A stretch of 64,000 nt of DNA from positions 448,001 through 512,000 of the forward strand of contig JAVLKG010000001.1 of the NCBI GenBank assembly GCA_032128875.1, written 5' to 3'. The stretch is from Candidatus Melainabacteria bacterium 17Bon1m (lineage in GTDB: Bacteria; Cyanobacteriota; Vampirovibrionia; Obscuribacterales; Obscuribacteraceae). A model generated the notes under the pieces. That model was not told where the DNA came from. It was given only the letters and a program-made list of their open reading frames with translations, and ran no database searches. Positions 4,453-62,190 of the stretch are shown here, piece by piece. The stretch's first letter is position 1, and each line of letters starts with the position of its first letter. Made by a program: the position numbers and the translations under genes.

Positions 4453-4646
4453 TTCTTTGTACCTGCTTATGCTGGCTGTGCCACGAATTTCTTCATTGTT
4501 TCTTACTTTCTTGACTGACGTATCAGTCAAATTGACTAATCGAAAAGAGTTGTTGAAAGGACTAATGTTGACCTGAATCATCCTTGAGAACAATGTCCCT
4601 TTAGGCGCAAAGGTCACACAATTAGAAAACTACTTCTTTCAATTAG

Positions 4647-4865
4647 ATGACATTGAAGATGAAAACAAAAAGCGAACGCTCAAGTGATTCAGATGCGCAA
4701 AAGTGCGCGGCAGCACATTGCCACTGCGTTTGCCGCGACCGTGAATACTGCTCGAAGCGCTGCGAATCTGCCTGCGACGGTCAGGAAATATGCCGGTGCG
4801 AGCATTCTCTTTGCGCTGGCAAAGAGTGCTATTCGCCGGAGGAATCGGCAAAAGTTGTAAAGTAA
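4647..4865 (+). CDS. Bacterial metallothionein-like protein
   Basis: 11 Cys and 3 His; pattern KC...HCHC...YCSxxC...CxCxHxxC resembles SmtA/BmtA. Alternative start at 4659. Confidence 0.7.
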   Translation: MTLKMKTKSERSSDSDAQKCAAAHCHCVCRDREYCSKRCESACDGQEICRCEHSLCAGKECYSPEESAKVVK

Positions 4866-4866
4866 A

Positions 4867-4890
4867 GAAGCCACCATTTATGGTGGCTTC
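4867..4890. terminator. Hairpin between convergent genes, probable terminator
   Basis: GAAGCCACCAT-TT-ATGGTGGCTTC perfect inverted repeat. Confidence 0.6.
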
Positions 4891-4918
4891 GCGTGGCTCA
4901 TTCAAAAGTATGAGCCAC

Positions 4919-5680
4919 TCAGACTATGCCGCGCCGCAGTGCATGTACCGCTGCTTGGGTTCTGTCGTCTACAGACAGCTTATTGAGAATGTTTCTGACG
5001 TGCGTTTTTGTTGTAGGCAGCGAAATAAAGAGCTTGTCTGAAATTTGCTGGTTGGACAGACCTTCGACAATCAACCCCAGCACTTCGAGCTCTCTTGTCG
5101 AAAGCGGTTCTACATACGGTCTGTCCGGTACATGACCTTCGTCCGGAGAATCTTTCTTTCCTGCATGGGCCGCCGGCTCTGCATCTTGGTTTTCTTCCCC
5201 GGTCGCTGCTTGCTCTTGGGAGGTATGTGACTGTTGCGAATACAACTTCAGAACTTTGCTGGCAATGGCGGTATCCAGCCAGGCATCGCCTGCCTTTACT
5301 GTGCGTATAGCCATGTAAAGACGCGAATCTTCGACGTCTTTCAAGCAATAACCGGATGCACCGGCAGTGAAAGAAGCCATAACATCCTGGTCATTATCAT
5401 GTTGCGTAAGCATGATGATTTTGGCGTTACTTCCGCTTTCCATAATCTTCTTCGACGCTTGAATGCCGTCCATTATCGGCATGCCTACATCCATCAAGAT
5501 TACGTCTGGTTTGAGCAAGGCAGCTTCTCGAACCGCTTCTTCTCCATTGGATGCCTCCCCGACAACAATTAAATCGCTTTCACGCTTCAAGACTGTTTTA
5601 ATACCAACCCGCGTCAGGGCGTGGTCTTCAACCAATAGAATGCGTATCGTCTTGCCTTCGTTTTTGCTTTCGTCCGTCAT
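4919..5680 (-). CDS. NarL/LuxR-family response regulator (RR1)
   Basis: REC domain (LVEDH, LMDVGMP, MLT, GYCLKD), long polar linker, LuxR HTH (LSTRELEVL...TKTHVRNILNKL...DDRTQAAV). Confidence 0.95.
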   Translation of the reverse strand: MTDESKNEGKTIRILLVEDHALTRVGIKTVLKRESDLIVVGEASNGEEAVREAALLKPDVILMDVGMPIMDGIQASKKIMESGSNAKIIMLTQHDNDQDVMASFTAGASGYCLKDVEDSRLYMAIRTVKAGDAWLDTAIASKVLKLYSQQSHTSQEQAATGEENQDAEPAAHAGKKDSPDEGHVPDRPYVEPLSTRELEVLGLIVEGLSNQQISDKLFISLPTTKTHVRNILNKLSVDDRTQAAVHALRRGIV

Positions 5681-5783
5681 ATTTTAATTTCCAAGCCGGG
5701 ACGTAATTATATATACTCCCAAATCGAAGCAGTAGTCTGCTTGACGACTGGCGTGTGACCGAATAAATACTGTGGGCTTGACA

Positions 5784-7388
5784 ATGAATGTGACTTCTCC
5801 ATTTTCGGAGCTGAGTGAATCTGAGATCAAACAGCGCCAGCGTTGGCTTGAATTCGAGTCGATTTCTGAAGCGGAAATAGCTGCTATTAACGCGCTTCTC
5901 GAAAAACATGCAGATGAGCTCATGGACAGCATGTACGAACACTTTTTGAGCTTCGAGGAAACGCGCAGTTTCTTCCCTACCGAGCAGATAATGCAGAGAG
6001 CCAAAGGCGCTCAAAAGCAGTATTTCTTGCGACTCGGTCGGGGCGTCTATGACACTGATTATGTGAGAGACAGACTCAGAGTAGGATTGACTCACCACCG
6101 AATTGAGCTCGATCCAAAATGGTACATAGGAGCTTACAACAGAGCTGCATCATGGCTTATGCCGAGACTCTTTGCCGAAAACGATTTAAGCGAATCGGCT
6201 AAAGTCGACCTGGCGAGGTCACTTCTAAAACTCATTTTTTTCGACATGGGGCTGGCCATTGAAAGTTATATCGGGTCGAAAGAATTGGCTCTCCTCGAGC
6301 ATCGAGATGCAATTAGAGAGTTAGAGACGGAAAAGAGAGTCACAAAGAGCATTCTCGAAAGTGCTCCTATCGGCATTGTAAGTTTAGATCTCGATTACAG
6401 ATGTCTTGAGTGCAATGAAGAGTTTGCTCAGCTTGTTTCCTGTGATTCCACTTCTGACGTTATTGGAAAATTGCTCTTTGATCTGGCCCCAAAGCTTCCT
6501 CAGGAGCCTTTCAAACACGTAATCGAAACAGGTCAACCAAGCCAGTTCTCGGCCAATGCTCTTAATTTTGCAAAGAACAATCCCACTGAGGTTACTTACT
6601 GGGATTGGGCGGCCTGGCCGGTAAAAAACAAAGGTGTATACGGCATTGTTGCCATGTTCTCGAATGCAACCGATAGAGTTCAGTTGCAACAACAAAGAGA
6701 AGATTTTGTTGCCACTCTTACTCATGACCTAAAAACCCCTGTTTCTGCAACCAATCGTGCGGTCAAGCTCATTCTTGCCGGGGATTTTGGCGAAGTTTCT
6801 GCCGAACTAAGGGAAATTCTCGAGACAGTTTTGCAAAGCAACACAACTCTGTATGCGCTCGTTCAAACTTTGCTTGATGTCTATCGCTTTGACAGCGGTG
6901 TCAAGGTTATGGATATGAAAGAGTGTAACCTGGCCGGGATAGTTACACAGCTTGTCACCGAAATCATGCCTTTGGCTCAAGAAAGGCGCATTCAGCTCAA
7001 GGCTGTTTTGCCATTTGATCTTGAGTGCATAAATTGCGACCAAGAAGAAGTCCGCCGTGTTGTGCAGAACTTGATTGACAATTCGCTTAAATTCACTCCG
7101 GCTGGCGGTACCGTCACCGTCACAATGTCTCAGAACGATGAACTCACCACCGTCTCGGTAAAAGACACTGGAAAAGGCATCCCGCCTGAGAACATGTCCA
7201 AGCTATTCCAAAGATTCTGGCAAGCCGGATCAAGCGGTCGATACTACGCTAGTACCGGACTCGGTCTTTACCTGGCAAGAAAAATTGTCGAAGGTCATGG
7301 CGGCAAAATTTCATGCGAGAGTAAGGTGGGAGAAGGCAGCACATTCTCGTTCGAGCTGCCTAATTCAGGCCAAACTCCAAAGAGCTAG
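5784..7388 (+). CDS. Globin-coupled sensor histidine kinase (globin-PAS-HisKA-HATPase), cytoplasmic
   Basis: HemAT/protoglobin-like N-terminus (MYEHF with B10 Tyr, VGLTHHRIELDPKWYIGAY with proximal His), PAS-like ILESAPIGIV, H-box THDLKTP, NLIDNSLKF, DTGKG, STGLGL; no transmembrane segment. GTG at 5772 is an alternative start. Confidence 0.9.
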   Translation: MNVTSPFSELSESEIKQRQRWLEFESISEAEIAAINALLEKHADELMDSMYEHFLSFEETRSFFPTEQIMQRAKGAQKQYFLRLGRGVYDTDYVRDRLRVGLTHHRIELDPKWYIGAYNRAASWLMPRLFAENDLSESAKVDLARSLLKLIFFDMGLAIESYIGSKELALLEHRDAIRELETEKRVTKSILESAPIGIVSLDLDYRCLECNEEFAQLVSCDSTSDVIGKLLFDLAPKLPQEPFKHVIETGQPSQFSANALNFAKNNPTEVTYWDWAAWPVKNKGVYGIVAMFSNATDRVQLQQQREDFVATLTHDLKTPVSATNRAVKLILAGDFGEVSAELREILETVLQSNTTLYALVQTLLDVYRFDSGVKVMDMKECNLAGIVTQLVTEIMPLAQERRIQLKAVLPFDLECINCDQEEVRRVVQNLIDNSLKFTPAGGTVTVTMSQNDELTTVSVKDTGKGIPPENMSKLFQRFWQAGSSGRYYASTGLGLYLARKIVEGHGGKISCESKVGEGSTFSFELPNSGQTPKS

Positions 7389-7912
7389 TTTTTCCCGGTT
7401 CCAGAAGCCACGGCTTTCTTCTCGGATTTTTCGTCTACCGTTTTTCTGGGAACTCTCACTATCATCACGTTGCAAGGCGCGTGCGAAACGACCGCTCCTG
7501 ATACGCTTCCGAGGAAGAATTTGGTGAAACCGGTACGCCCGTGGGAGCCCACCACTATCATGTCGGCAGACAAACGCTTTGCTTCATCCACAATAACTTC
7601 TGCCGGCATCCCTCCAACCACGTCTGTTTCGATCTCAAATTGAGCCAGTTTTTGTTGCATGTCTGATTTCACCCTAAGCAAAAGCTTTTCGGCGTAATCA
7701 CGTACATCCTTTTCTACCGATTCAAGAAAAAGTGGATAGCTGGCCATTGGGTGATCCATCATGATCGGCGCAATAACATGAATTAGCCTGAACTTCGTCC
7801 CGTCCGTCCATTTGTGATTGGTGAGAAAGTCCACGATAAGAGGTGCGGCCGAACTTTCATCGATTGCAGCCAGGACTAGATATCCACTCTTTTTTTCGTC
7901 TTTGTTGTTCAT
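7385..7912 (-). CDS. Universal stress protein (single domain)
   Basis: VLAAIDE...VVGSHGRTG...LGSVSGAVVSHAPCNV. Confidence 0.9.
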   Translation of the reverse strand: MNNKDEKKSGYLVLAAIDESSAAPLIVDFLTNHKWTDGTKFRLIHVIAPIMMDHPMASYPLFLESVEKDVRDYAEKLLLRVKSDMQQKLAQFEIETDVVGGMPAEVIVDEAKRLSADMIVVGSHGRTGFTKFFLGSVSGAVVSHAPCNVMIVRVPRKTVDEKSEKKAVASGTGKN

Positions 7913-7917
7913 GATGC

Positions 7918-8895
7918 TCACTTGCTTTGTTTTTTGTGATTGGTCGTGATGAGTTCGTTTTTTCTTTCTTCTGTCAATTTGAAGCCTTTGTGATCTTCGG
8001 GCCACAGAAGCAGGCAGGGCAATGTCAAACTGACAATGAAGTCTTCCGGTGCAGTGCCTAGAACCGTTATTCTCTTCTTGCCAATGTCTCGTGTAGGCAA
8101 AACGAAAAGAGTCTCTGCAAAGATACTTTCATCTGTTTCACCGGCCTTGTTTTCGTAAAAGAGATCCTGGCGACTCATAGCTGCATGACCTTCAAAGCAG
8201 TCGATCTCAATGTCTATGCCTTTGGCCTCAGGCAGCTCGGAGAGAAGATCCTTCTTAAAGTTGGCCGGTTTTTCTTCTCTCACACCCGTTGCCCAAAATT
8301 CCAGTTTGGGTGTAAGACCCAGCACCAATGCCAGATTTAGGCAGGAGCGGATGTATTGTATGTTGATGTGGTCCATCTCTGAAACAATGGTCATCCCCTG
8401 CCAGACGGCCGGCTTTGATTGTACGATCAGCACGGGAATGGGCGATTCATGCGCAATTCCTTCGGCAATAGAGCGCCTTATGTAATGATTGAAGTCACGG
8501 TCTACCGCACGAAGCCCCGAAGGAGCATGTCCTAGCACAATCAGATCGTAGTCTTTTGCATCTTGTGCGAGCAATTCCACTGGATTACCTTCTTTGGTAA
8601 TTACTTTTCCTTCGATTTTTTTGCCTTCTGCGATTGCCTCATATTTAGACAGCAACTGGTTGCTTAGAGAGCGCATCGACTCCATAGTCTGGTCATAAGC
8701 TTGTACGTAAGGACCGCTGCCAATAAATCCAGGCTTGTCGCTTCTTAAGAGTTCCCAGACTGTGCGGCAGTCAATAATGTGCTCTGCAGTCACGGTCGCA
8801 TTTATCTTTTCAGCAATAAACCAAGCTAGCTCCGCTGCGTTGCGAGATTGCTCAGACCCGCTCAGTGCAACGAGGATCGAATGTTTGCTCATCAT
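7918..8895 (-). CDS. Universal stress protein with divergent C-terminal half
   Basis: ILVALSGSEQS...GNPVELL...DLIVLGH...SIAEGIAHESPIPVLIV. Confidence 0.8.
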   Translation of the reverse strand: MMSKHSILVALSGSEQSRNAAELAWFIAEKINATVTAEHIIDCRTVWELLRSDKPGFIGSGPYVQAYDQTMESMRSLSNQLLSKYEAIAEGKKIEGKVITKEGNPVELLAQDAKDYDLIVLGHAPSGLRAVDRDFNHYIRRSIAEGIAHESPIPVLIVQSKPAVWQGMTIVSEMDHINIQYIRSCLNLALVLGLTPKLEFWATGVREEKPANFKKDLLSELPEAKGIDIEIDCFEGHAAMSRQDLFYENKAGETDESIFAETLFVLPTRDIGKKRITVLGTAPEDFIVSLTLPCLLLWPEDHKGFKLTEERKNELITTNHKKQSK

Positions 8896-8921
8896 CTATC
8901 TCCTGAAATTTGATTGAAAAA

Positions 8922-9848
8922 CTATCTATAGACAAGAACACTTGTTCTCGTTGCTCGCACTATGTGAGTGGTCGTGCTTCCGACGACATTCTCTTCCGGA
9001 TCCTTAAAACCATATGCGCCTACTATTAAAAGCGCGTTCTGCTCTTCAGCTTGTCTCAGAATAGTGTTGGCTGGTTGACCGACCTTTACATCAAAAACAT
9101 CTTGCATCAAGCATCTAGTCTTTACTGCAACGCCTCCATCATCAGTGCCTTCTTTCTGCTGCTCTGGCGTTTGATAATTGCGCAACAACGATGCACCCAT
9201 TTCTATGATGCTATTAGCTTGCTTGATTTGATCTTCTTCTCTTACTACAAGTATGGCTTTCAGAGGTATGCCGGTGGCGATTGCCAGCTGTTCGCCCAAA
9301 AGAAGCGCTCCTTTTGAGGGCTCGCTGCCATCGTATGCAACCAGAATTGTCTTCAGTGAGTCCGGTGGTGTCACTGAAATCAATACTGACTTTTTCGCAC
9401 CGACTGCCACCCTTTCTGCTACCGAACCGACACGAAAGAATGACAATGCTGCTTGATGATTCTTGTAACCTACGCCTCTATGTCCTACAACGACCAGAGC
9501 TTTATTCTTTCCCGCCTTGAGAATCTCTTCGGTGACATCTCCAAGCACCATATGTGTCTTTGCTGCGCATCCCATGTGTGCTTCTGCATCCGCTTTCCAC
9601 AATTTGAGAATGACAGTGGCTATCTTCTTCAGACCTTGGATAATCTTTGCTGAAGCATCGATTGAAGGTTTGATGCCGAGATCTTCTGCGAATTCCGGGG
9701 AGAGGAAAAGATCGACGATTCGTGGATCTACAACTGATATCGCTTCAAGTTCTGCATCAGTTTTTTTTGCTATCCAGAATGCGGTAAGTGATGCGTTCTG
9801 ACTGTATTCGGAGCCGTCCAGTGCGACCAAAACACGGGTGTTTTTCAT
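8922..9848 (-). CDS. Tandem-domain universal stress protein
   Basis: VLVALDGSEYS...GHRG...VGSVAERV; ILVAYDGSEPS...GAYG...VGSTTTHIV. Confidence 0.9.
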   Translation of the reverse strand: MKNTRVLVALDGSEYSQNASLTAFWIAKKTDAELEAISVVDPRIVDLFLSPEFAEDLGIKPSIDASAKIIQGLKKIATVILKLWKADAEAHMGCAAKTHMVLGDVTEEILKAGKNKALVVVGHRGVGYKNHQAALSFFRVGSVAERVAVGAKKSVLISVTPPDSLKTILVAYDGSEPSKGALLLGEQLAIATGIPLKAILVVREEDQIKQANSIIEMGASLLRNYQTPEQQKEGTDDGGVAVKTRCLMQDVFDVKVGQPANTILRQAEEQNALLIVGAYGFKDPEENVVGSTTTHIVRATRTSVLVYR

Positions 9849-9936: not shown

Positions 9937-10009
9937 TCGACCGCAATGACTATTGCTGTCTTTTGCCGTCCGGAGGGCTTTTGGTAAGGGCTGTCATCAC
10001 AAAGTATGA
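9937..10009. promoter_or_regulatory. Two putative NarL-type 7-2-7 operator boxes upstream of the usp triplet
   Basis: TCGACCG-CA-ATGACTA (9937-9952) and TCATCAC-AA-AGTATGA (9994-10009). Confidence 0.6.
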
Positions 10010-10010
10010 G

Positions 10011-12449
10011 TTAAGTGGCCGCTGCTGCGGCTGCTTCAGGCAAGCGAGCTTGCAGAAGTTGCGCTTCTTTCTCATAAACCAGCTGAATGGTCTTAACAAC
10101 CACATCTGCGCTCAGTGAAATACTGTCTATTCCTTCTGCGACCAGGAACTCTGCAAATTCAGGATAATCACTTGGGGCCTGACCGCAAATGCCTATTTTG
10201 CGACCTGCTTTTTTCGCTTCCTTAATGACATGAGATATCATCTTCTTGACCGCGGAGTTTCGCTCATCAAAGAGTTCCGCTACGTCTTTCGAGTCTCTAT
10301 CTACACCCAAAACAAGTTGCGTGAGGTCGTTCGAGCCGATCGAAAAACCATCGAAAATCTCAGCAAATTCGTCAGCCAGGATGACATTCGATGGAATTTC
10401 GCACATAACGTAGACTTCCAATCCTGCCTTGCCTCGCTCAAGCCCATTGTCCGCTAATTCCTTGAGAACAAGCAGACCCTCATTAATAGTTCGGCAAAAA
10501 GGCACCATGATTTTCACATTCGTAAGACCCATCTCTTCTCGAACATATTTAAGAGCGCGGCATTCCAGAGCAAAACCGTCTTTGTATGCTTTGTTGTAAT
10601 ATCTTGATGCTCCTCTAAAACCCAGCATCGGATTTTCTTCTACCGGCTCGAATTGACCACCTCCTAGAAGATTGGCATATTCATTGGTCTTAAAATCCGA
10701 AAGTCTGACGATTACAGCTCGAGGATAGAAAGCCGCGGCAATCGTTCCTATTCCCTCGCTCAACCTCTCTACGAAATAGTCTGTCTTGTTTTCATATTTG
10801 CCAGTCAGGTTTTGAATAGCTTCTTTCGCCTCTGAATCGTGCAATTGGTCAAATCGTGTCAAAGCCAGTGGATGCACTTTCACTTCGTTAGCAATGACGA
10901 ATTCTTCCCGCGCAAGTCCTACTCCGTCTACAGGTAAATGAGAGAGCGTAAAGGCTTGATCCGGATCGGCCAGATTGAGCATGATTTTTGTTTTCGGTTT
11001 TGGCAATTCATCAAAATCAAGCTCTAACTTGTCAAACTGAAGCATGCCTGAAAACACTTTCCCTTCAGTTCCTTCGGCACAAGATACTGTCACTTCAGTT
11101 CCTGATTTCAGCATTCTTGTAGCTAATTCCGTGCCTACCACGCAAGGCACTCCCAATTCACGGCTTACAATCGCCGCATGGCAGGTTCTACCACCCCTGT
11201 TGGTGACAATGGCTGCCGCTCTTTTCATAACCGGTTCCCAGTCCGGGTCTGTCATATCGGCGACCAGTACTTCACCGTCTTTAAAGGAAACCAATTCTTC
11301 TTTTGTTCTAATTAACCTTACTTTTCCTGCGCCGATTCGCTGGCCAATAGCGCGTCCCTGAAAGAGCAATTCTCCCTTTTCTTTCAGTGAATACGAAGTG
11401 ATTGTGCTTGCTTTCCTTGCCGAAATGACGGTTTCGGGGCGAGCTTGAACTATGTACAATCGCTGACTAAGTCCATCTTTTGCCCATTCGATGTCCATAG
11501 CCATTGCGTGATTGTTCACTTTGCTATAGTGCTCTTCAATTGAAATTGCCCATTTTGCAAGCGTGTTTACTTCTTCATCGCTCAAGGAAAGTTGATTTCG
11601 AACTTCGTCGGGCACCGGAAGATTTTTTGTTCTTCTGGTTCCGTGATTATCGTATACAAGGCGTTGTTGCTTTAGTCCGACTTTTCGTCTCAGAATTGCT
11701 TTGAACCCTTGCTTAAGGGCCGGTTTGAAGACCAGATATTCATCAGGGTCCACTTTTCCTCCGACCACATTCTCACCCAGTCCCAGTGCCGATGTAATCA
11801 GAACAGCGTCCCTAAATCCGCTTTCTGTATCGAGAGTGAAAATGACTCCCGAAGATGCGAGATCGGAGCGGACCATCTTCTGCACTGCAATCGATAGCTT
11901 GACGCCAAGCTGGTCGAAGCCTTTGTCGTGTCTATAGGAAATCGCTCTTTCTGTGAAAAGAGAAGCAAAACAATCTAAGCAAGCGACAATCAGTGCTTGC
12001 TCACCCTGGATGTTCAAAAACGACTCCTGTTGCCCGGCAAAAGAAGCATCAGGTAAGTCTTCTGCCGTTGCACTGGAGCGAACAGCCACATCTACATCGT
12101 TGCTTTCGCTGTTCTTCGAGAGCAATTTGTAAGCGGAGATCACTTCTCGTTTTACCGGCTCCGGAATTCCTGCTTTTCGTATCAGCTCTCTTGCTTTATG
12201 AGAGCGTTCCTGTAAATCCTGCACACTGCCTGTGAGTGGCGACTGAAAGAGCTTCTCCAGCTCGTTTTTAACGTTGCCTTGTTCGAGAATTGCATCATAT
12301 GCATCGACTGTGATCGCAAAGCCTTCCGGTACATTGATGCCGAGTTGGCTGAGGCATCCTGTCATTTCGCCCAGGGACGCATTCTTCCCTCCGACCTTCG
12401 GCAAGCTGGCCATCGAAATCTCGTCGAATTGCAATATGTACTTGCTCAT
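10011..12449 (-). CDS. ppsA: Phosphoenolpyruvate synthase (pyruvate, water dikinase)
   Basis: VGGKNASLGEM, VAVRSSATAEDLPDASFAGQQES, phospho-His motif GGRTCHAAIVSRE, ENPMLGFRG, FSIGSNDLTQ; GGAG SD. Confidence 0.97.
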   Translation of the reverse strand: MSKYILQFDEISMASLPKVGGKNASLGEMTGCLSQLGINVPEGFAITVDAYDAILEQGNVKNELEKLFQSPLTGSVQDLQERSHKARELIRKAGIPEPVKREVISAYKLLSKNSESNDVDVAVRSSATAEDLPDASFAGQQESFLNIQGEQALIVACLDCFASLFTERAISYRHDKGFDQLGVKLSIAVQKMVRSDLASSGVIFTLDTESGFRDAVLITSALGLGENVVGGKVDPDEYLVFKPALKQGFKAILRRKVGLKQQRLVYDNHGTRRTKNLPVPDEVRNQLSLSDEEVNTLAKWAISIEEHYSKVNNHAMAMDIEWAKDGLSQRLYIVQARPETVISARKASTITSYSLKEKGELLFQGRAIGQRIGAGKVRLIRTKEELVSFKDGEVLVADMTDPDWEPVMKRAAAIVTNRGGRTCHAAIVSRELGVPCVVGTELATRMLKSGTEVTVSCAEGTEGKVFSGMLQFDKLELDFDELPKPKTKIMLNLADPDQAFTLSHLPVDGVGLAREEFVIANEVKVHPLALTRFDQLHDSEAKEAIQNLTGKYENKTDYFVERLSEGIGTIAAAFYPRAVIVRLSDFKTNEYANLLGGGQFEPVEENPMLGFRGASRYYNKAYKDGFALECRALKYVREEMGLTNVKIMVPFCRTINEGLLVLKELADNGLERGKAGLEVYVMCEIPSNVILADEFAEIFDGFSIGSNDLTQLVLGVDRDSKDVAELFDERNSAVKKMISHVIKEAKKAGRKIGICGQAPSDYPEFAEFLVAEGIDSISLSADVVVKTIQLVYEKEAQLLQARLPEAAAAAAT

Positions 12450-12463
12450 TTTTAGCTCCACTC

Positions 12464-12880
12464 TTATGAGTAACGATGGACCTCTTGAAGCAGAAGATCG
12501 AAAATCACGGGTGCAAGATTGGAACAGCTCAGTTGGCAGTCGAGCGGTTTTGCTTTTCCTGAGGCCATCCTTGCTCTGTAATAACTCAATCTGTTCTGAA
12601 ATGATTTCCAGGCTGTTTGCATGTCTGCTGCACTCGTCGTGTTATTCCTGCTTGCGAAAAAGTGCTGTAATACTTTATATGCGGCCTGGCAGCATTCGCA
12701 GCAATCGGTCAGATCATTTTCTGGGTTGCCGACGGTTTCAATCTCTTTCGGGTCACCGCCATCCTCAAATACACCAAACTCCCTTGCTCCTTGCTGAATA
12801 GCCTGAGCTCCAGTCAGTCCGTTGCCCACAAGTAAATCGTGAATATATAAACGGGCGCTTGGAAAGCTTAGCGACTTCAT
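12464..12880 (-). CDS. Hypothetical protein with CCECC cluster
   Basis: Lies within the operon; 4-nt ATGA overlap with the upstream gene; no recognised family. Confidence 0.6.
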   Translation of the reverse strand: MKSLSFPSARLYIHDLLVGNGLTGAQAIQQGAREFGVFEDGGDPKEIETVGNPENDLTDCCECCQAAYKVLQHFFASRNNTTSAADMQTAWKSFQNRLSYYRARMASGKAKPLDCQLSCSNLAPVIFDLLLQEVHRYS

Positions 12881-13458
12881 GTTTCAAAACCGGCCTTTGT
12901 CTCCGAGACCAAAGCGATTGCGTTTTGTTGACCCAGTTCTGTGCCTGTATCGATGCCGTCTTCAACTGTAATCAGATGTTTGCCGCCCGCACAGAAGAAA
13001 TGATGAATGAGTGGACGCAATTCACGAATGCGATCTTGCTTGCTGCCGACAAATTGTCCGAGATCGACTGAAATTAGCCCATCTGCGTTTTCCATTTCAT
13101 CAAGCGCCGCTCTGAATCCAAAAGACGGATGGTCCGAAACATCGCTGAATGTGTCATAAATTTGATAGCCATTCTCGCTGCAGTACGCTTTAATGAGTTC
13201 GAGCTTTTCCTCGAGGTCCTCTTCTTTGAGCACGCGGATGTAGACTACCAGTCGTTCTTTTCTATTGCGATTGACATAGTAGTTTGAGATTGAATTGCTT
13301 TTCTCGGTGCAAAGGCAACGATTCAGCAGGTCTCCTTGATGACTAATTCTAGGAGAGTGCGGTCTTTTCTCTTTGAAAAAGTGTTCCATTAAGGGACGCT
13401 GTTCGTGATCATCCAAAGCGTTCATTGTTTTTACTCCCGGACTTCCGTTGTTTTCCAT
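12877..13458 (-). CDS. Serine recombinase/resolvase catalytic-domain homolog, apparently inactive
   Basis: VYIRVL (canonical YxRVS), ..AYC..NGY.I...F.D, D.LI..DL, LITVEDGIDT.T..G. Catalytic Ser and DRxxR are missing; no HTH. Confidence 0.7.
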   Translation of the reverse strand: MENNGSPGVKTMNALDDHEQRPLMEHFFKEKRPHSPRISHQGDLLNRCLCTEKSNSISNYYVNRNRKERLVVYIRVLKEEDLEEKLELIKAYCSENGYQIYDTFSDVSDHPSFGFRAALDEMENADGLISVDLGQFVGSKQDRIRELRPLIHHFFCAGGKHLITVEDGIDTGTELGQQNAIALVSETKAGFET

Positions 13459-13469
13459 TTGTAATGAGC

Positions 13470-13937
13470 TTATGCGATTTTTTGTTCCTTGACTGCATCT
13501 ATCGGTTTAATAACTACAACCGAGCAGGGTGCATGAGAGACAAGGAACATTGAGACGCTTCCCAAAATAATTCTGTCCAGTCCGTGCCGTCCATGACTTC
13601 CCACGATGAGCATTTCAGGTCTTTCTCTGGTCACTTCCTTCATGATCTCGTCTGCAGCAAAACCTTCTATTATCTGCTTTTGAATCATTGTCTTTGGCAC
13701 AGATCTACTTATGGTGCGAACAAAGTCTTCGACCAGACGAGCTGCCTCGTCTTTTCGCTTCTCCAGCATTTCATCAAGAACTGGACCCGGCAGTACGGCC
13801 ATTAGATTGCCGACTTTGAGAGGCTCGACAACACTCAATACCTTAAAGTCCGTGCCTTCATCCCATTTGTGAGTGTTTACAAATTCAGCAATTGCATTTG
13901 CAAAATTGACTTCATCTATAGCGATCAAAACTTTCAT
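13470..13937 (-). CDS. Universal stress protein
   Basis: MKVLIAIDE...VGSHGRHG...LGSVS...HAPCSV; GAGG SD. Confidence 0.9.
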   Translation of the reverse strand: MKVLIAIDEVNFANAIAEFVNTHKWDEGTDFKVLSVVEPLKVGNLMAVLPGPVLDEMLEKRKDEAARLVEDFVRTISRSVPKTMIQKQIIEGFAADEIMKEVTRERPEMLIVGSHGRHGLDRIILGSVSMFLVSHAPCSVVVIKPIDAVKEQKIA

Positions 13938-14010
13938 TTGCCAAAACCTCTTGTACTGAGTCTCGCCGTCTCGTTGCTGCCATTTGACCACGCTTGAATC
14001 CGTCGACACA

Positions 14011-14135
14011 TCATGCAAAGGGACTAGGGCCAGTCAACCGAAGCTCTCGGTCACTTACTTTCTTTCAAAATTGCCCCGGACCCAACCGCATTATTTAGGA
14101 TAGTCACTACGATTTGCCTTCATACTAAAGGACTA
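14011..14135. promoter_or_regulatory. Two putative 7-2-7 boxes in the divergent usp-ppsA / mgtA promoter region
   Basis: TCATGCA-AA-GGGACTA (14011-14026) and TCATACT-AA-AGGACTA (14120-14135). Confidence 0.65.
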
Positions 14136-14300
14136 TTCATTCGGGTAAGTAAGAGGCAAACTGCTCTGGATTTCCGCTTTTGCTGGTCTTAACAACAGTC
14201 AAACCTGGGAACGATGGGGACATTTCTCCCAGATGGCACTATTAAAGCCAGGCGGCGTTTGCAAAGGTTACTTTGCCGCCCACGTTGGAGAGGCGAGAGT

Positions 14301-14669
14301 ATGCTTTTACAGAACGTTCACCAAGGTTCAGACTTCAGAGACGCCGTGGAAAAGCCCGCACTAGATGCATGTCTTGCGTCGATTCTCGCTTGCACGGGTT
14401 TAGGGGTACTAGTCACTTACCTTTGGCTTGTCGAATCAATACCAGTTGCCAGTCTTTCAGGAGCCGTCATGGCTGGGGCTGCAGTCGGTGCCAGCGCGGG
14501 AATTCTCCTATTCGGACTTGTTGATGTGGTGATCTCTGGACGCCTCGAGGAATCTGCAGAAATTGTTGAAGATGCAGATGCAGTTTTAGACAACGAAGAG
14601 AAATACGAAACGCCGCCAGAATTTCTGGGGCAAGAGGAAGATGACTTCACTCTGCAGAAAGCCTCGTAA
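14301..14669 (+). CDS. Hypothetical 2-TM membrane protein with acidic tail
   Basis: GGAG SD before ATG 14301; two hydrophobic helices; directly upstream of mgtA. Confidence 0.6.
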   Translation: MLLQNVHQGSDFRDAVEKPALDACLASILACTGLGVLVTYLWLVESIPVASLSGAVMAGAAVGASAGILLFGLVDVVISGRLEESAEIVEDADAVLDNEEKYETPPEFLGQEEDDFTLQKAS

Positions 14670-14676
14670 TTTTGAT

Positions 14677-17214: not shown

Positions 17215-17221
17215 CAAAGCA

Positions 17222-17237
17222 CCATACTAAAGGTCGA
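17222..17237. promoter_or_regulatory. Putative 7-2-7 box upstream of usp-ftsH
   Basis: CCATACT-AA-AGGTCGA; shares CATACTAAAGG with the box at 14120. Confidence 0.6.
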
Positions 17238-17314
17238 TGGCGAAAGTCGTTTTGCTAACTAGATTAGATGAGATAGCCGCAGCGACTTGCATATTACGAG
17301 CGAGGGCATTGGAC

Positions 17315-17812
17315 ATGAAAGTACTATTGGCAATTTCAGATCGCCTGTTTGGCGATGCAATTGTTCGTTTTGCCTCTCATCACAAGTGGAATGCAGGCAC
17401 TGAATTTAAGCTCATTACTGTGGTTGCTGCGCTTCAACGTCAACCAGGTCATTCGGACGAAGACAAAAAAATCTTCTTTGATGAAGAGATGAAATTGGCA
17501 GACAAACAGCTTTCACAATTAAAATCTGCTCTAATGAAGGCTTTGCCGGATGCATACATCACTTATGAAGTATTAGTTGGCAGCCCTTCTCACGAAATTC
17601 TTGAATGTGCAAAAAATTGGCCAGCTCAGTTTATTTTGCTTGGATCGCATGGACGTGAAGGTTTGGAGAAAATGCTTTTAGGTAGTGTATCTCACTACGT
17701 GGCCTGCCATGCACCATGCTCTTTCAGCATAGTCCGCGTCGCCAACAGCGATGTTTTGGATTTCGAGCTAGAGGAAGAAGACATCCCCCTCGAGATGCGG
17801 GCGTTCGGATAA
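17315..17812 (+). CDS. Universal stress protein
   Basis: MKVLLAISD...LGSHGREG...LGSVSHYVACHAPCS. Confidence 0.9.
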   Translation: MKVLLAISDRLFGDAIVRFASHHKWNAGTEFKLITVVAALQRQPGHSDEDKKIFFDEEMKLADKQLSQLKSALMKALPDAYITYEVLVGSPSHEILECAKNWPAQFILLGSHGREGLEKMLLGSVSHYVACHAPCSFSIVRVANSDVLDFELEEEDIPLEMRAFG

Positions 17813-17820
17813 TAAATAAG

Positions 17821-22549: not shown

Positions 22550-22565
22550 TCGTCCAGACGGACTA
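22550..22565. promoter_or_regulatory. Putative 7-2-7 box in a divergent promoter
   Basis: TCGTCCA-GA-CGGACTA. Confidence 0.55.
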
Positions 22566-37659: not shown

Positions 37660-37668
37660 ATTTGTTGG

Positions 37669-47651: not shown

Positions 47652-47791
47652 TGGCTCATCGTTCCAAGGGATGGTCAAATTACTTTTCTTGGAGCGATTC
47701 CGATAGAGAAGTTATCGTAAGACTGATGTCGGCAACTAACAGTAATGATAAAAAAGGAACATTGCTCTTGCTTTAGTCTTTAGGAAAACGC

Positions 47792-50354: not shown

Positions 50355-50408
50355 TAGTCGATCGGTATCATCCAATTGGACTTTCAGCAAACTAATACTT
50401 TCGACTGA
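50355..50408. promoter_or_regulatory. Three putative 7-2-7 boxes upstream of the HAD fusion
   Basis: TAGTCGA-TC-GGTATCA (50355), TCATCCA-AT-TGGACTT (50368), TAATACT-TT-CGACTGA (50393). Confidence 0.6.
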
Positions 50409-52087: not shown

Positions 52088-52140
52088 ATTAACTGAATTG
52101 CAGTAGGGTCTTTATCGAGCAAAAGGATTAACGAAGGTTC

Positions 52141-53078: not shown

Positions 53079-53834
53079 ATGGGTAACGAAGAACAGGACA
53101 CCAAAACACGCATTCGAATTTTGCTTGTAGAAGATCACGCCCTGACCAGGGTGGGCATCAAAACAGTGCTCAAGCGAGAGGCTGATTTTGAAGTCGTTGG
53201 TGATGCATCAAATGGCGAAGAAGCGATTGCACAAGCTGAAGCGCTTAAGCCTGACATTATTTTGATGGATGTTGGCATGCCTGTAATGGACGGAATTCAG
53301 GCGTCTAAGAAGATTGTTGACAGCGGATCTGCCGCCAAAATAATCATGCTTACGCAGCATGACAACGAGCAGGACATTCTTGCCTCACTGTCTGCCGGTG
53401 CATCCGGTTATTGCCTTAAGGATGTCGAGGCTTCGAGATTGTACATGGCAATCCGGACAGTCAATGCCGGTGATGCCTGGCTTGATTCAGCCATAGCCGG
53501 TAAGGTTCTAAAACTCTATAACACGCAAAATCCTGCTCCCGCGAGCACCCAGCCTCAAGAGCCGGCTTCGCCAAAAGAACACCACTCGGTAGCCGCTGGC
53601 AGCCCTAGTCAAAAGGCATATGACCCAGATCGCCCCTATGCAGAGCCCCTCTCGCCTCGAGAATTAGAGGTTCTTGGGCTTATCGTGGAAGGGCTATCCA
53701 ATCAGCAAATCTCAGATCGGCTAATTATTTCGTTGCCAACCACTAAAACGCATGTTCGCAATATTCTCAATAAGTTAGCAGTTGATGATCGAACTCAAGC
53801 GGCTGTGCATGCTATGCGGCGCGGTATCGTCTAG
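53079..53834 (+). CDS. NarL/LuxR-family response regulator (RR2, orphan paralog of RR1)
   Basis: Same REC and HTH motifs as 4919-5680; 5 differences in the last 63 aa. Confidence 0.95.
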   Translation: MGNEEQDTKTRIRILLVEDHALTRVGIKTVLKREADFEVVGDASNGEEAIAQAEALKPDIILMDVGMPVMDGIQASKKIVDSGSAAKIIMLTQHDNEQDILASLSAGASGYCLKDVEASRLYMAIRTVNAGDAWLDSAIAGKVLKLYNTQNPAPASTQPQEPASPKEHHSVAAGSPSQKAYDPDRPYAEPLSPRELEVLGLIVEGLSNQQISDRLIISLPTTKTHVRNILNKLAVDDRTQAAVHAMRRGIV

Positions 53835-54062
53835 CTTTTGAAGCTTGTTTGCGGCGTTGCCAATGTGTTTGCTGTGCTATTTCATCAGGTGCATCCTTCT
53901 TTGGGATGAATTTTGGGATTTTAATTTTTACGCAGAGTCCTCAAAGTGGCTGCGATGTCCTGCGAAGAGCACCGCAGAATCATTCATCAGTTAGATGTTC
54001 GCAGGCCTGTTTGATGCCAGAGTAGTCTTGTTGAATTAGTGCAGGCGCCTTTGGATAGAAAA

Positions 54063-58482: not shown

Positions 58483-59184
58483 CTAATCGCGCAGTCCTAT
58501 GAAGGTTTGGATCACAATGGCGTGGTTTGCCTGATCGTCGAAATTGTCCGTCCTGTTTACATACTGCAACTGGTAACCAACCTCAACTCGGCTTCTTTTA
58601 ATGGATTTTAGACCTACGCCAAAGAAGCATCGGTTTTGGTCGATACCTGCTTCTGGTCCGCCATTCAGGGTGTTCAGGTTTATAAATAGCTCGTCTTGAG
58701 CGGTCAGGTACATACGCTTGTTTACGTTGTAATTCAACTTCACGAGGTATCGCAGTCTGTTGCTGACGCCATTAACACCGCCCAAGAAGCGCTGTTCACT
58801 ACGGATTCTGTTGTACAGGGAGAATCTTTTGATTGGCTTGTGATACAAAACCTGCTGCCAGATGCGGTTTTCATGCACGACCTGACTATTTTGGTTGCTG
58901 TAATTTGTTTGCCAGAGATATCCTGCAAAAAAGCCCAAATTATCTGTTTGTCTCCACTCGAGACCAGGTCGAACCAGTAGCTGGCTTATCTGCGAGACGT
59001 TGTACCCTATCCGGGGCGCGACCTCGAAATAACCTCTAAGCTTGCCTTTGATTGGCTCGTCCAACGTCACCGGAGTCCAAAGCTGCATGTCGTGATCGAC
59101 GTTAGCTCTTGCGGCATTAGGTAACGCCGTGCATGCCACTAACAATGCACACGGTAATATCCAACGCCGCGCCCTTACTTTCAT
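58483..59184 (-). CDS. DUF2490-like outer-membrane beta-barrel protein
   Basis: Signal peptide; ENRIWQQ, RSEQRF, RLRY, DELFINLN, DQNR. Confidence 0.8.
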   Translation of the reverse strand: MKVRARRWILPCALLVACTALPNAARANVDHDMQLWTPVTLDEPIKGKLRGYFEVAPRIGYNVSQISQLLVRPGLEWRQTDNLGFFAGYLWQTNYSNQNSQVVHENRIWQQVLYHKPIKRFSLYNRIRSEQRFLGGVNGVSNRLRYLVKLNYNVNKRMYLTAQDELFINLNTLNGGPEAGIDQNRCFFGVGLKSIKRSRVEVGYQLQYVNRTDNFDDQANHAIVIQTFIGLRD

Positions 59185-59253
59185 CCGACTTACCGAGGTA
59201 CCCACATGGATCGCACAGCGAATCACCGGCTACATTGTTGCACAGGATTGTCC

Positions 59254-60558
59254 CTAATCTTTCTCGTTTTCTTGTCTGCCGCCGGTTCTAATAATGCAGG
59301 TGTGTGCGCCACGTCCCTTTACTTTGCTGACCGCAATCGTCAAGCTTTTGTACTTGAAGTTATCTCCAACGCGCGGCGGTCGCTGAAGTCTGTCTAAGAC
59401 CAACCCGCTCAGCGTCTCGATGGCTTCTTCTTGCATGGAAATTTCCAAGTATTCTTCCAGCTCGTACAGGTGAACAGTTCCGTCTACTCTCAATGAACCG
59501 TTCTCCAGCCATTCTATCTTGTGTCGCGTGATAGACTCGTCAATTTCGCGGATGACCTCTTCAAATATGTCATCGGTGCTGATGATACCGGCTGTTCCAC
59601 CGTACTCATCAAGCACGACGGCCATGTGGGTGCGATATTCACGCATCGACTCCAGAACGTTTTTCAGCGGTGACGACAAAGGAACGAAAGGCACAGGATT
59701 AACGGTCAGGGCGTTGTCGTTGTATTCTTCGAGCAGAGCTGCAAGATCTTTGATATGAACAACGCCAATGATGTTGTCTTTATCTTCTGTATAAACTGGA
59801 AATCGAGAATGCGTTGCAGTTCGAATGCACTCGTCCAATTGCTCTTTTGATGGGCGCACCGGCAATGCTGTCACATGAACTCGAGGCACCATGATGTCTT
59901 CTGCGACAAGTTCGCCAAAATCGAACATTTGTTTTATCACTGTACCGATTTCATCGCTGATAATTCCTTCTGTTTCACTCTCTTCTAAAATCAATTGAAT
60001 TTCGTCTGCGGAAAAGGCAGGCACACTAGACTTTGAACGGTCGATTCCAAAAAAAGTTTTCAATAAAAAGGTATTGAGTCCATTCAAAACGTAAATAATC
60101 GGTTTGAATAACGACATGCAGAACAGCATCGGTCGGATTAGTAGAAACATCACCAGCTCTGACTTTTGAAGAGCCAATGATTTTGGAACGATCTCACCGA
60201 GAACGACATGCATATAAGTGAGCAAAACCAGCGATAGAATACTCGCTACGAGGTGTACCGCAGTAAGCTCAACGATGCCTGTCGCGCTCAACTGTTGTGT
60301 GATCCAGTGTGCAATCACTTCCTCGCCGTACATACCCAGCGCCAAACTGGCGATAGTGATACCGACTTGAGACGCCGCAATATACCGGTCTTGTCGTGCA
60401 GGCTCTTTGATGACCGCGATAATTTGTTGTGCGGTCTTGTCCCCATCTAGCGCGCGTTTTTCGATGGACTGTTTGGGCGCAACAACAGTCGCGAATTCAG
60501 ACGCCACAAAGAGAGCGTTGCAAAAGATCAAAAAGAAAATTATGCCGAGCTCAAACAT
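59254..60558 (-). CDS. CorC/TlyC (CNNM-CBS-CBS-CorC) family protein
   Basis: NALFVASEFA, QVGITIASLALG, GEIVPKS, HSRFPVY, VLDEYGGTAG. Confidence 0.92.
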   Translation of the reverse strand: MFELGIIFFLIFCNALFVASEFATVVAPKQSIEKRALDGDKTAQQIIAVIKEPARQDRYIAASQVGITIASLALGMYGEEVIAHWITQQLSATGIVELTAVHLVASILSLVLLTYMHVVLGEIVPKSLALQKSELVMFLLIRPMLFCMSLFKPIIYVLNGLNTFLLKTFFGIDRSKSSVPAFSADEIQLILEESETEGIISDEIGTVIKQMFDFGELVAEDIMVPRVHVTALPVRPSKEQLDECIRTATHSRFPVYTEDKDNIIGVVHIKDLAALLEEYNDNALTVNPVPFVPLSSPLKNVLESMREYRTHMAVVLDEYGGTAGIISTDDIFEEVIREIDESITRHKIEWLENGSLRVDGTVHLYELEEYLEISMQEEAIETLSGLVLDRLQRPPRVGDNFKYKSLTIAVSKVKGRGAHTCIIRTGGRQENEKD

Positions 60559-61891
60559 TTTGTGCCGTTCCCTTTCTTATCACGGTCACAATTGTGGCGG
60601 CATGATGTTCTACCTGCTCAACCGTAATGATGGCAGCCGGCAACTCAACGGTATCCCCTCTTTCTGGAACTCTTCCGAGTATTTCCATAACTAGTCCATT
60701 GATTGTTTCTGCTTCGCTGTCGTAATTTGCACCCAAAAACTTCGTTGCTCTGTGCAATTTATAATTGCCGGAGACGCGTATTCTTCCGTCCTCGAGTACT
60801 TCAAATATGTCCGGTTTCTTAAAGTTGGCGGCGTCGAAATCTTGAATAAGTTCTCCCAAAATATCGCCAACAGTAACAAGTCCGATCATGCTGCCGTGTT
60901 CGTCCATCACGAATGCGACATGAGAATGCTCTCGTTTTAGCAATGTGATTAAGCGGCTCAATGTTAGGTTTTCCGGAATAATTGGAGTCTTTGAAATAAG
61001 TTCTTCCAGTGAGCTTTTTTCACCTTTGTCAAACCAGGCCTGGATAACTTGTTTTACGTTTACACATCCAAGTACATCATCGACATCAGCACCGTGCACC
61101 ACTAGCCGAGTGTACGGGCTGCTCAAGGCACTGCGGTACGCTTCTTGCATGCTGAGTTTGCTAGATATTGAAAGCACATTCGGGCGCGGAATCATGATTT
61201 GCTTTGCGGTTTTTTCGCTGAGTTCGAGCGCCTGGTGCAAGCGTTCATGTTCTTCTGGTTCCAGTAATCCACCATCCTTGCTTTGCGCCAACAGCAAGGC
61301 AATCTCGTCCAGAGAATGAACGTGTTTGTGAGACGACGCGGGCACACCGAGCAGCTTTAATAGTGCGACTCCGCTGCCGTTGAATAGCCATATAAATGGG
61401 CGAAGTATTACAGACGCGACGCGCAACGGCCAGTACATGAATAACGCAATCGGCTCAGAGTGCGTCAGCGAAACCGACTTGGGAAGCAGTTCGCCGATGA
61501 GAATTTGCAGTAAGGTAAAAACGCCAAGAATCGCGACGGCCGCTACCGACTCGGCAAGGACGTGGTCGAGTTTGAAAACTTCAACTAGAAACGCAGCCCA
61601 GATCGGACCAAACTGTGTCTCAGTGTAGGCGCCCAGAACCAGGCTCGAAAAGGTGATGGCTATCTGACAAGTAGCGATATATTCGTCCAGCCTGCGAGGC
61701 GTTTCGAGAATCGGCAGGAGCGAGCTGGCCAACTTATTGCCTGACAAGGCAGCCTTGCGAATAATGGTTGTTCTGGCGGCGACTGTTGCGAATTCGGCTG
61801 CGACGAATATCGAATTGAGAAATATAAAACCTATTGCAATTGCCCAGACGCTTGTCATTACTGTTTTTGGACTACCCTTTGAAGTTGCCAT
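60551..61891 (-). CDS. CorC/TlyC (CNNM-CBS-CBS-CorC) family protein, tandem paralog
   Basis: NSIFVAAEFA, GELLPKS, MIPRP, MDEHG. Start at 61891 or 61858. Confidence 0.92.
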   Translation of the reverse strand: MATSKGSPKTVMTSVWAIAIGFIFLNSIFVAAEFATVAARTTIIRKAALSGNKLASSLLPILETPRRLDEYIATCQIAITFSSLVLGAYTETQFGPIWAAFLVEVFKLDHVLAESVAAVAILGVFTLLQILIGELLPKSVSLTHSEPIALFMYWPLRVASVILRPFIWLFNGSGVALLKLLGVPASSHKHVHSLDEIALLLAQSKDGGLLEPEEHERLHQALELSEKTAKQIMIPRPNVLSISSKLSMQEAYRSALSSPYTRLVVHGADVDDVLGCVNVKQVIQAWFDKGEKSSLEELISKTPIIPENLTLSRLITLLKREHSHVAFVMDEHGSMIGLVTVGDILGELIQDFDAANFKKPDIFEVLEDGRIRVSGNYKLHRATKFLGANYDSEAETINGLVMEILGRVPERGDTVELPAAIITVEQVEHHAATIVTVIRKGTAQNV

Positions 61892-62190
61892 TGGAACGCT
61901 TCTTAACGCTCCAAGAACATTCGTTTGTCGCCTTTTTGCTGCACCCTGGTCAGGTGTTGAGACACCCAAAAGGTACCGGAGTTCCTGCGCCTGCCTCATA
62001 CTTGAGTGTACTACTACCGCCTTTCATGAGGGGCACTACCTCTCCATGACGGTTCTAAACTCTGCGATAACACTCGCAAACCCGAGTCCTGGTTGCCTTT
62101 TGCGCACGTAACAAAAGGCTTTGTTTAGGGAACACATCAATTTTTAGTTGGTCCAACCAGTTGAAAGAAGGTAAAAACATTGGGGGCGTT

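Follow-up and report, generated by a model that had tools for sequence, protein, structure and literature searches.

Within a 64,000-nucleotide stretch of Candidatus Melainabacteria bacterium 17Bon1m (hereafter the window), a 16-bp palindrome, TCRTMC-N4-GKAYGA, recurs in intergenic DNA, and comparison with characterized regulators makes it probable, at roughly three chances in four, that it serves as operator for a few closely related NarL/LuxR-type response regulators (RR), namely, RR1, RR2, and RR3. The window covers positions 448001 to 512000 of contig C1 in genome G000, a draft of 7.55 Mb in 35 contigs (93% complete, 4.5% contamination), and positions without a contig prefix refer to it. 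It encodes RR1 (4919..5680, minus strand), its paralogue RR2 (53079..53834, plus strand), and a globin-coupled histidine kinase (5772..7388, plus strand) that is the presumed cognate sensor, while RR3 lies on another contig. An initial annotation had listed 16 copies of a "7-2-7" inverted repeat, likened its half-sites to NarL heptamers, and proposed a window-wide regulon linking its targets to the globin kinase through RR1 and RR2. All 16 sequences that it quoted were found where it had placed them, and Pfam bore out the gene map that it assumed.

The motif is real, a point that we consider confirmed. Expectation-maximization (EM) constrained to palindromes and seeded with every 16-mer from the 8.4 kb of intergenic DNA in the window returned as its top result the very repeat that had been noticed by eye, the best seeds being 14120, 19821, 26610, 9994, 17222, and 26220 and the converged model holding about 16.5 sites and about 12.6 bits. 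The matrix was most informative at T1 (0.88), C6 (0.89), G11 (0.89), and A16 (0.88), with T at position 4 (0.82) and A at position 13, and positions 7 and 10 carried only about 0.2 bit; the label "7-2-7" is therefore apt for the geometry of the repeat and not for its information, which follows a 6-4-6 shape. Motif widths of 20 or 24 bp gained little information, drew in weak sites, and were set aside. When the number of sites was fixed at 12, the best palindrome reached 13.91 bits in the real DNA versus 12.08 ± 0.29 bits in dinucleotide shuffles (maximum 12.99), exceeding all 74 of them. This information-content test took the place of a likelihood-based null, which was dropped when free mixing drew the shuffles toward A/T-rich motifs that had little information but counted hundreds of "sites."

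Simple counts gave a similar picture. With up to two mismatches allowed, the IUPAC consensus of the initial annotation matched the window 16 times versus 3.79 ± 1.63 times (maximum 9) in 100 dinucleotide shuffles, and its half-sites gave 1 to 9 matches at 12 other spacings (0-1 and 3-12) and 1 to 7 in everted orientation versus the 16 at a spacing of 2, both tests being post hoc in that they inherit the earlier choice of sites. The position weight matrix (PWM) found 14 intergenic and no coding matches of at least 11 bits in the window, as well as 13 intergenic matches of at least 12 bits versus 0.5 ± 0.8 for 60 column-permuted palindromic controls, counts that are circular because the matrix was trained on the window. 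A palindrome search and a comparison of coding with intergenic DNA were among the checks that the initial annotation had suggested for its motif, which ranked first in one and, at 11 bits or more and subject to that circularity, stayed out of coding DNA in the other. Counts of exact palindromic dyads in intergenic DNA were uninformative, since the motif is degenerate.

Evidence free of this circularity came from relatives, which are kin rather than independent samples, with intergenic DNA that cannot be aligned at 51-66% regulator identity. A blind search of 18 loci from family- and order-level relatives, which took no input from the G000 genome, ranked TCATCC-N4-GGATGA first, at 18.5 bits versus 13.5 for the next unrelated motif, and T1, C6, G11, and A16 are conserved in this motif too. 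In 19 Melainabacteria RR loci, leaving out the 92%-identical locus L037, the PWM found 22 intergenic matches of at least 12 bits versus 1.11 ± 1.63 in 200 column-permuted controls, and 21 loci around distant RRs of other phyla yielded a single match. Furthermore, the window-trained matrix applied to 16 loci of kinase orthologues gave mostly intergenic matches (7 versus 2 coding in L022; 6 versus 1 in L024). Orthologous promoters, another check suggested at the outset, showed the sites to be conserved amid otherwise diverged sequence: 14120 and 14199 persist in seven genomes within a divergent usp (universal stress protein)/ATPase region whose flanks barely align, and 9994 and 9937 are both kept in eight genomes upstream of a three-gene usp operon. 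Across those eight genomes 9994 is invariant as T C A T. C T T T.. G. T G A and 9937 forms the block TAGTC-N6-GGTCGAT, so that footprints confirm four sites in all. In a family of small genomes (f2; G025 and G027), the recognition helix of the RR differs (SLSTVKSHVRNILNKL), and the PWM scan yielded a single intergenic match, of 11.3 bits, in L031 and nothing in L032.

The candidate binders are well matched to such an operator. Pfam identifies RR1 and RR2 as REC (Response_reg) plus GerE proteins, in line with their earlier placement in the NarL family, and the two are 73% identical and share the recognition helix SLPTTKTHVRNILNKL. Among about ten NarL-type DNA-binding domains in the genome, only RR3 (C4:236425-237168) shares with them the segment ...KTHVRNILNKL, and RR orthologues across the order all keep SL(P/A)T(T/A)KTHVRNILNKL. 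The best site in the genome, the perfect palindrome TCATCCTAAAGGATGA (20.4 bits), lies between RR3 and a divergent sigma-70-family gene (C4:236425-238629, L080); two usp genes adjoin this gene pair. By PDB sequence search, the closest solved relatives of RR1 are LiaR/VraR (5hev, 7e-46), ahead of NarL and DevR (7e-31), and K225-T226 of RR1 align with the Lys-Thr of the LiaR segment K-T-V-K-T, this Lys being K177 in LiaR, K188 in NarL, and K182 in DosR. In the congeneric genomes (L022-L027), the kinase-adjoining RR is closer to G000 RR2 (77-82%) than to RR1, which suggests that the RR1/RR2 pair arose by recent duplication, with RR1 changing faster.

LiaR recognizes T(X)4C(X)4G(X)4A, with Lys-177 contacting the consensus G and the guanine opposite the consensus C, and with Lys-174 and Thr-178 also making base contacts (PMC4482077). 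The LiaR, VraR, and CesR boxes of Firmicutes cell-envelope stress systems are the same 16-bp inverted repeat with T1, C6, G11, and A16 (PMC4482077). The lactococcal CesR box is given as TCAGHCTnnAGDCTGA and, compared with TCATMCTnnAGKATGA, differs solely at positions 4 and 13, having 12 of 14 specified positions in common (PMC4447274). Within this scheme, a phosphorylated dimer of the regulator would bind the palindrome with one helix-turn-helix per half-site, and the conserved recognition-helix Lys would read the C6/G11 pair, as in LiaR. The recognition-helix Lys and Thr of the LiaR group are conserved here, and both systems combine primary with secondary sites, whereas the inner bases TCAGHCT of the LiaR/CesR boxes are not encountered, position 4 being T rather than G and position 13 A rather than C. 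The position of LiaR Lys-174 is Pro in RR1, RR2, and RR3, and we speculate that this change underlies the altered positions 4 and 13. Other differences lie in the flanks, no A-tract being seen at the sites here, and in the circuitry: LiaR systems have a LiaFS sensor and envelope targets, in contrast to the cytoplasmic globin kinase and the usp, hydrogenase, ATPase, and ppsA targets of this melainabacterial system.

The NarL protein of enterobacteria shares the dyad geometry of 16 bp and belongs to the same family, but its heptamer, TACYYMT, does not match TCRTMCT, and its signal, nitrate or nitrite received through NarX/NarQ, is unlike the one considered here. The likeness to NarL heptamers drawn in the initial annotation accordingly does not hold for half-site sequence, which is LiaR/CesR-like. 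Judged by its sequence, the putative operator belongs with the NarL-family boxes of LiaR/CesR type but has an inner specificity of its own; the type itself is ordinary for the family.

As to the signal, Pfam recognizes Protoglobin (2.5e-36), PAS, HisKA, and HATPase_c domains in the kinase at 5772-7388; a PDB sequence search with this protein matched the kinase core alone, without a globin-domain match, and no GAF domain was found by Pfam in it or in two other kinases. A search of 12 congeneric genomes found orthologues in 11 of them (64-95% identity), and eight other genera of the family have more distant ones (48-62%). Moreover, in 19 of 20 Melainabacteria loci, and in none of 21 distant ones, the globin kinase gene stands next to the RR orthologue in divergent orientation, which supports a cognate kinase-RR pair and agrees with the link to the globin kinase drawn initially. 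RR1 would then be the partner of the adjacent kinase, and haem ligation (O2, perhaps NO or CO) would set its phosphorylation state. Two tandem histidine kinase genes (23151-26077), which carry site 26220, may also feed in. An RR-globin kinase pair with 57-66% identity was also seen on contigs labelled Drouetiella sp., Oculatellaceae cyanobacterium, and "Proteobacteria bacterium" (L039, L041, and L045), reflecting either mixed bins or a pair that moved between lineages.

The spacing of sites and promoter-like elements bears on the mode of action. About ten promoters in several genomes, two of them orthologous, have a -10-like hexamer 21-23 nucleotides (nt) after the site, and among 76 oriented site-gene pairs (sites of at least 13 bits in G000 plus relatives) TANNNT stands exactly 22 nt after the site in 7, other offsets giving 0 to 3. 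Such a hexamer would put the site centre near -42, the position of a class II activator, and so points to activation rather than repression. LiaR and DevR are activators that use primary and secondary boxes (PMC4482077, PMC3177182). Given binding, we therefore lean toward activation, with modest confidence.

Several observations weigh against the assembled reading, some touching activation, others the identity of the binder or the reach of the motif. The -10 peak consists of 7 of the 76 pairs, two of them orthologous, and sites 14199 (at a start codon), 4898 (before a terminator-like hairpin), and 20582 (no downstream gene) do not fit simple activation from -42. Autophosphorylation of AfGcHK, the protoglobin kinase of Anaeromyxobacter, is reported to be enhanced by O2 binding; an activator under a kinase of this behaviour would turn hypoxia-type genes on in air, so that either the regulators repress or the kinase responds in the opposite way. 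This is the ground for the alternative that the same regulators bind as repressors, the O2-bound kinase keeping them phosphorylated and the island off in air until loss of O2 de-represses it. The low-oxygen look of the targets (hydrogenase, usp, HPF, and qNOR) combined with the reported response of AfGcHK speaks for repression, as do the position of 14199 against a start codon and the presence of two or three sites in several promoters. The hexamer that would place sites near -42 in about ten promoters speaks against it, as does the fact that the closest characterized relatives, LiaR and DevR, are described as activators with tandem boxes, and we hold repression to be unlikely, though it is the alternative that fares best.

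Regarding the binder, the PWM scan found no site of at least 7.5 bits between RR1 and the kinase gene or immediately ahead of RR2, so that autoregulation of RR1 or RR2, common in LiaR and DosR systems, is not evident. In addition, 8 of 20 Melainabacteria RR loci have no intergenic match of at least 12 bits, and the relatives' loci were picked via the RR or the kinase, so that co-location of motif and RR could reflect some other regulator of the same island. The operator might, then, be genuine and yet bound by another transcription factor of the island, such as a CRP/FNR-, Rrf2-, or ArsR-type redox regulator, the RRs being mere neighbours or targets. The bare promoters of RR1 and RR2 would suit this view, co-location in loci so chosen is no independent test of it, and the island does hold ArsR-type genes (38955-39440 and C1:593907-594302) and an Rrf2 gene (C1:411824-412285). 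Against it stand the agreement in layout and in 12 of 14 specified positions with the published LiaR/CesR box, the rank of LiaR/VraR as closest solved relatives of RR1, the retention of both recognition helix and motif across the order, the position of the top genomic site next to RR3, and the lack of any CRP/FNR-family gene by Pfam among the window open reading frames (ORFs). Taken together, these points make a different binder improbable and leave the RR1-3 subfamily as the favoured one.

The reach of the motif is also limited. Beyond the island, the motif is barely enriched, with 31 intergenic matches of at least 12 bits versus 28 ± 8.4 for permuted controls and 15 of at least 14 bits versus 7.6 ± 2.9 (control maximum 17), and the regulon is essentially the island plus a few outliers. 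A genome-wide spacing scan with the loose IUPAC consensus showed no excess at a spacing of 2 (483 versus 496, 510, and 425 at 5, 8, and 11), a count dominated by coding DNA with its 3-nt periodicity. Finally, genes were called as longest ORFs only, a crude procedure.

Two further explanations would deprive the repeats of any regulator. They could be a functionless by-product of duplicated promoters of paralogous usp operons, or the pattern could stem from chance or base composition: the targets include many paralogous usp genes and P-type ATPases, the site pair C1:417917/418010 mirrors 14199/14120, and 6 of the 16 sites first listed score no better than chance. This is largely refuted and very improbable: the 16-mers are conserved where their flanks cannot be aligned, the motif exceeded all 74 shuffles and was found anew in distant relatives, and ppsA retains its site after relocation. 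The flanks of different sites are unrelated, as are the genes that follow them (A2M, histidine kinases, hydrogenase, hemerythrin, and sigma factor), so that neither duplicated promoters nor a mobile repeat explains the pattern. An RNA or DNA hairpin (terminator, attenuator, or REP-like element), which the inverted repeat with its 4-nt centre, the location of 20582 between convergent genes, and that of 4898 after a stop codon might suggest, is scarcely credible, as most sites lie upstream of genes rather than at 3' ends, many have just two or three complementary pairs, and halves within a site pair no better (3.93 of 6) than halves swapped between sites (4.23 ± 0.17), indicating selection on each half separately, as for a dimeric protein.

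Scored by the PWM, the 16 sites of the initial annotation comprise 9 strong ones of at least 11 bits (9994, 14011, 14120, 17222, 19821, 20582, 22550, 26220, and 50368), 1 that is weak but conserved (9937), and 6 at chance level, with 4578 (9.5 bits) and 50393 (9.8 bits) at background and 50355, 19790, 54023, and 61996 below 7.5 bits. Six strong sites had been overlooked (4898, 26610, 53894, 47659, 14199, and 52115). Sites cluster in two groups, at 4.9-26.6 kb and 47.6-53.9 kb. Also on the window's gene map is argFGH, and the PWM scan of the window found no site in the arg promoter, as noted earlier. An extra IUPAC match at 38891, upstream of usp 38378, scored below 7.5 bits and was dropped.

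The first group begins with TCATTCAAAAGTATGA at 4898..4913 (16.6 bits), directly after the RR1 stop codon and upstream of usp 3538-4617; a site occupies the same position after the RR gene in L037, L038, and L052. On the minus strand it is directly followed, at 4860-4897, by a terminator-like hairpin (GAAGCCACC...GGTGGCTTC, then T-rich DNA), which places the operator between the RR1 stop codon and the apparent RR1 terminator. The three-gene usp operon at 7385..9848 (minus strand) has its primary site at 9994..10009 (16.0 bits) and a degenerate, conserved secondary site proximal to it at 9937..9952 (8.7 bits). The usp-orf-orf-ppsA operon (10011..14018, minus strand; ppsA at 10011-12461) and the divergent orf-P-type ATPase-usp-ftsH string (14214..19722, plus strand; ATPase at 14641-17214, FtsH at 17716-19722) share the central site 14120..14135 (17.6 bits), the best EM seed. 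Each also has sites of its own: 14011..14026 (14.2 bits) for the former, and for the latter 14199..14214 (12.8 bits), a block conserved in seven genomes that abuts the annotated ATG of orf 14214, may overlap the translation start, and is uncertain in its role, and 17222..17237 (13.4 bits), ahead of usp 17237 and ftsH. Reading the Usp proteins from their likely true starts (MKVL...) removes several apparent overlaps with start codons, leaving 14011 about 90 nt upstream of the start of usp 13470 (MKVLIAID) and 17222 about 92 nt upstream of that of usp 17237. By alignment of orthologous promoters, site 14011 is confined to G000 and G011. In five congeneric genomes (L022-L027, alignment A1 columns ~222-238), a palindrome CATAC-N7-GTATG that is absent from the window is conserved just upstream of the usp13470 orthologue, at the position that 14011 takes in G000 and G011; this palindrome may represent a variant half-site or be recognized by a different factor.

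Farther along, 19821..19836 (16.3 bits) lies upstream of orf 19946-20530, which has no family, and 20582..20597 (14.2 bits) falls in a convergent intergenic region without an annotated downstream gene. A -10-like TAAACT occurs 22 nt past the latter on the plus strand, toward the 3' end of a fatty-acid desaturase gene (20725-21528, minus strand), and the segment 20582-20724, in which no ORF is evident, could encode an unannotated small RNA or antisense transcript. Site 22550..22565 (13.3 bits) separates orf 22199 with cytochrome c (minus strand) from orf 22680 (plus strand), and in G007 and G005 related sites stand upstream of the orthologues of the cytochrome c gene and orf22680. The tandem histidine kinase genes (minus strand; Pfam HisKA and HATPase_c) are preceded by 26220..26235 (15.5 bits), and the alpha-2-macroglobulin (A2M)-like gene at 26670-31331 (plus strand) by 26610..26625, whose 18.3 bits are the window maximum. 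Pfam at relaxed thresholds assigned no family to the unknown target ORFs or to the N-terminal halves of the two extra kinases.

In the second group, 47659..47674 (14.7 bits) is upstream of a bestrophin-like gene (47792-48553, plus strand), 52115..52130 (11.9 bits) upstream of orf 51362-52087 and the TPR gene 50566-51339 (minus strand), and 53894..53909 (15.3 bits) upstream of the second P-type ATPase gene (54039-56837, plus strand); the TPR orthologue in G003 has a 16.7-bit site upstream. The site at 50368..50383, before a HAD fusion gene (48585-50309, minus strand), is doubtful. Another TPR-repeat protein, encoded at 62511-63992 (minus strand) and unconnected to the motif, matches in its C-terminal part the Pfam family ATLF (E = 2e-7), the anthrax lethal factor N/C domain family with a metalloprotease-like fold.

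Most of the target links proposed for these sites are borne out in relatives. Synteny maps show that upstream sites persist for the three-usp operon, for the usp-orf-orf(-ppsA) operon, and for the orf-ATPase-usp-ftsH string; ppsA, relocated next to the RR in G003, G007, and G002, keeps its own site, and ftsH in the family-level relative G021 has one of 17.4 bits. The usp operons, ppsA, the P-type ATPase operon, and ftsH thus stand as conserved candidate targets. The HAD fusion does not: its sites are weak (11.0 and 9.8 bits), and in up to 400 nt upstream of three orthologues (269 nt in one) the best matches reached 1.9-4.1 bits, with no counterpart site. The whole 20-kb stretch at 3400-23300, intergenic DNA included, was also found in four RNA-Seq-labelled libraries (X1-X4) as single 35-38 kb contigs of even depth, a pattern that suggests DNA carried in the libraries more than transcripts and carries no information on transcription, start points, or levels; the libraries may also be the assembly's source.

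The regulon is not bounded by the window, as the expression "window-wide" would have it, and extends at least 35 kb leftward, with the third RR on another contig (C4). Pfam counts seven Usp genes in the window, 17 of the 31 Usp domains in the genome lie between C1:421 kb and 487 kb, and 5 of 25 intergenic matches of at least 12.5 bits outside the window fall in the 35 kb to its left. Outside the window, moreover, sites of at least 11 bits precede 3 of 15 usp-containing operons versus 60 of 3776 others (Fisher p = 0.0017). A NiFe hydrogenase operon is preceded by site C1:440763 (19.1 bits), a usp-usp-usp-hycI-hypAB string opposite hypF has a site of 16.0 bits, and a P-type ATPase-usp-HPF-usp-GNAT-usp string opposite an orf-globin-qNOR string has sites of 17.6 and 14.1 bits. 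Further sites precede a RIC/ScdA-Rrf2 pair (15.5 bits), a hemerythrin (17.7 bits), a PAS kinase (16.5 bits), and dnaK (13.2 bits). The adjoining C1:410001-448000 (L078 and L079) carries the island further: besides NiFe hydrogenase, hyp genes, qNOR, and globin, it has six more usp genes together with genes for a ribosome hibernation factor, an Rrf2 regulator, and a rubredoxin-ScdA-hemerythrin protein, and good sites stand before several of these. The controlled genes would make up a stress and low-oxygen island of universal stress proteins, ppsA, P-type ATPases, and FtsH, extended outside the window by NiFe hydrogenase with its maturation genes, the qNOR/globin cluster, hemerythrins, the ribosome hibernation factor, and a sigma factor.

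This content recalls the mycobacterial DosR/DevR system, in which a NarL-family regulator under haem sensor kinases controls targets that are induced by hypoxia, NO, or CO and include many universal stress proteins and functions suited to low oxygen. Enrichment for usp and promoters with several sites are both seen here, several kinases may feed in, as the two extra site-bearing histidine kinase genes would allow, and DevR likewise uses tandem primary and weaker secondary boxes (PMC3177182). The differences are equally clear. The Dev box, an 18-bp palindrome with GGGACT in each half (PMC3177182), is not found here, where the halves are TCRTMC...GKAYGA and GGACT, where present, is in everted order. 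DosS and DosT are GAF-haem kinases, in contrast to the Protoglobin-PAS-HisKA-HATPase_c architecture without a GAF match, DevR is a weaker PDB match to RR1 than LiaR (7e-31 versus 7e-46), and no autoregulatory site for RR1 or RR2 is present. From its sequence, then, the system would work like the DosR regulon while departing from it in box sequence and kinase type. The sensor type is shared with AfGcHK and with NmpU of the Myxococcus xanthus NmpRSTU system, in which a protoglobin is likewise fused to HisKA and HATPase; the kinase here differs in also having a PAS domain, and the operator types are unrelated. NmpRSTU controls a hypoxia-induced oxygen-utilisation regulon that includes a Usp, and its signal passes through a second kinase to an NtrC-like regulator, unlike the kinase here, which adjoins a LuxR-type regulator (PMC11841059).

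Melainabacteria are uncultured or barely cultured. A full-text literature search for response-regulator/Usp or globin systems in Melainabacteria or Obscuribacter returned nothing but one unrelated paper, and to our knowledge nothing is known of how Melainabacteria regulate their genes. Tentatively, and short of even odds in our estimate, we propose that Obscuribacterales, a non-photosynthetic sister lineage of oxygenic cyanobacteria, carry a DosR-like dormancy and low-oxygen island assembled independently of mycobacteria, in which a globin kinase would signal directly to the LiaR-like RR1-3 and one 16-bp operator would serve some 20 or more promoters. These would cover usp genes, ribosome hibernation, NiFe hydrogenase, NO reductase/globin, hemerythrins, ion pumps, FtsH, and a sigma factor. 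A conserved operator, a candidate regulator, and a putative haem sensor together offer testable wiring for the oxygen or redox response of these facultative organisms. For very few globin-coupled histidine kinases is the physiological output known, that of M. xanthus being one example (PMC11841059). A direct circuit from such a kinase to a LuxR-type regulator with a mapped regulon, if true, would be a second and simpler example, and a functional parallel to mycobacterial DosR.

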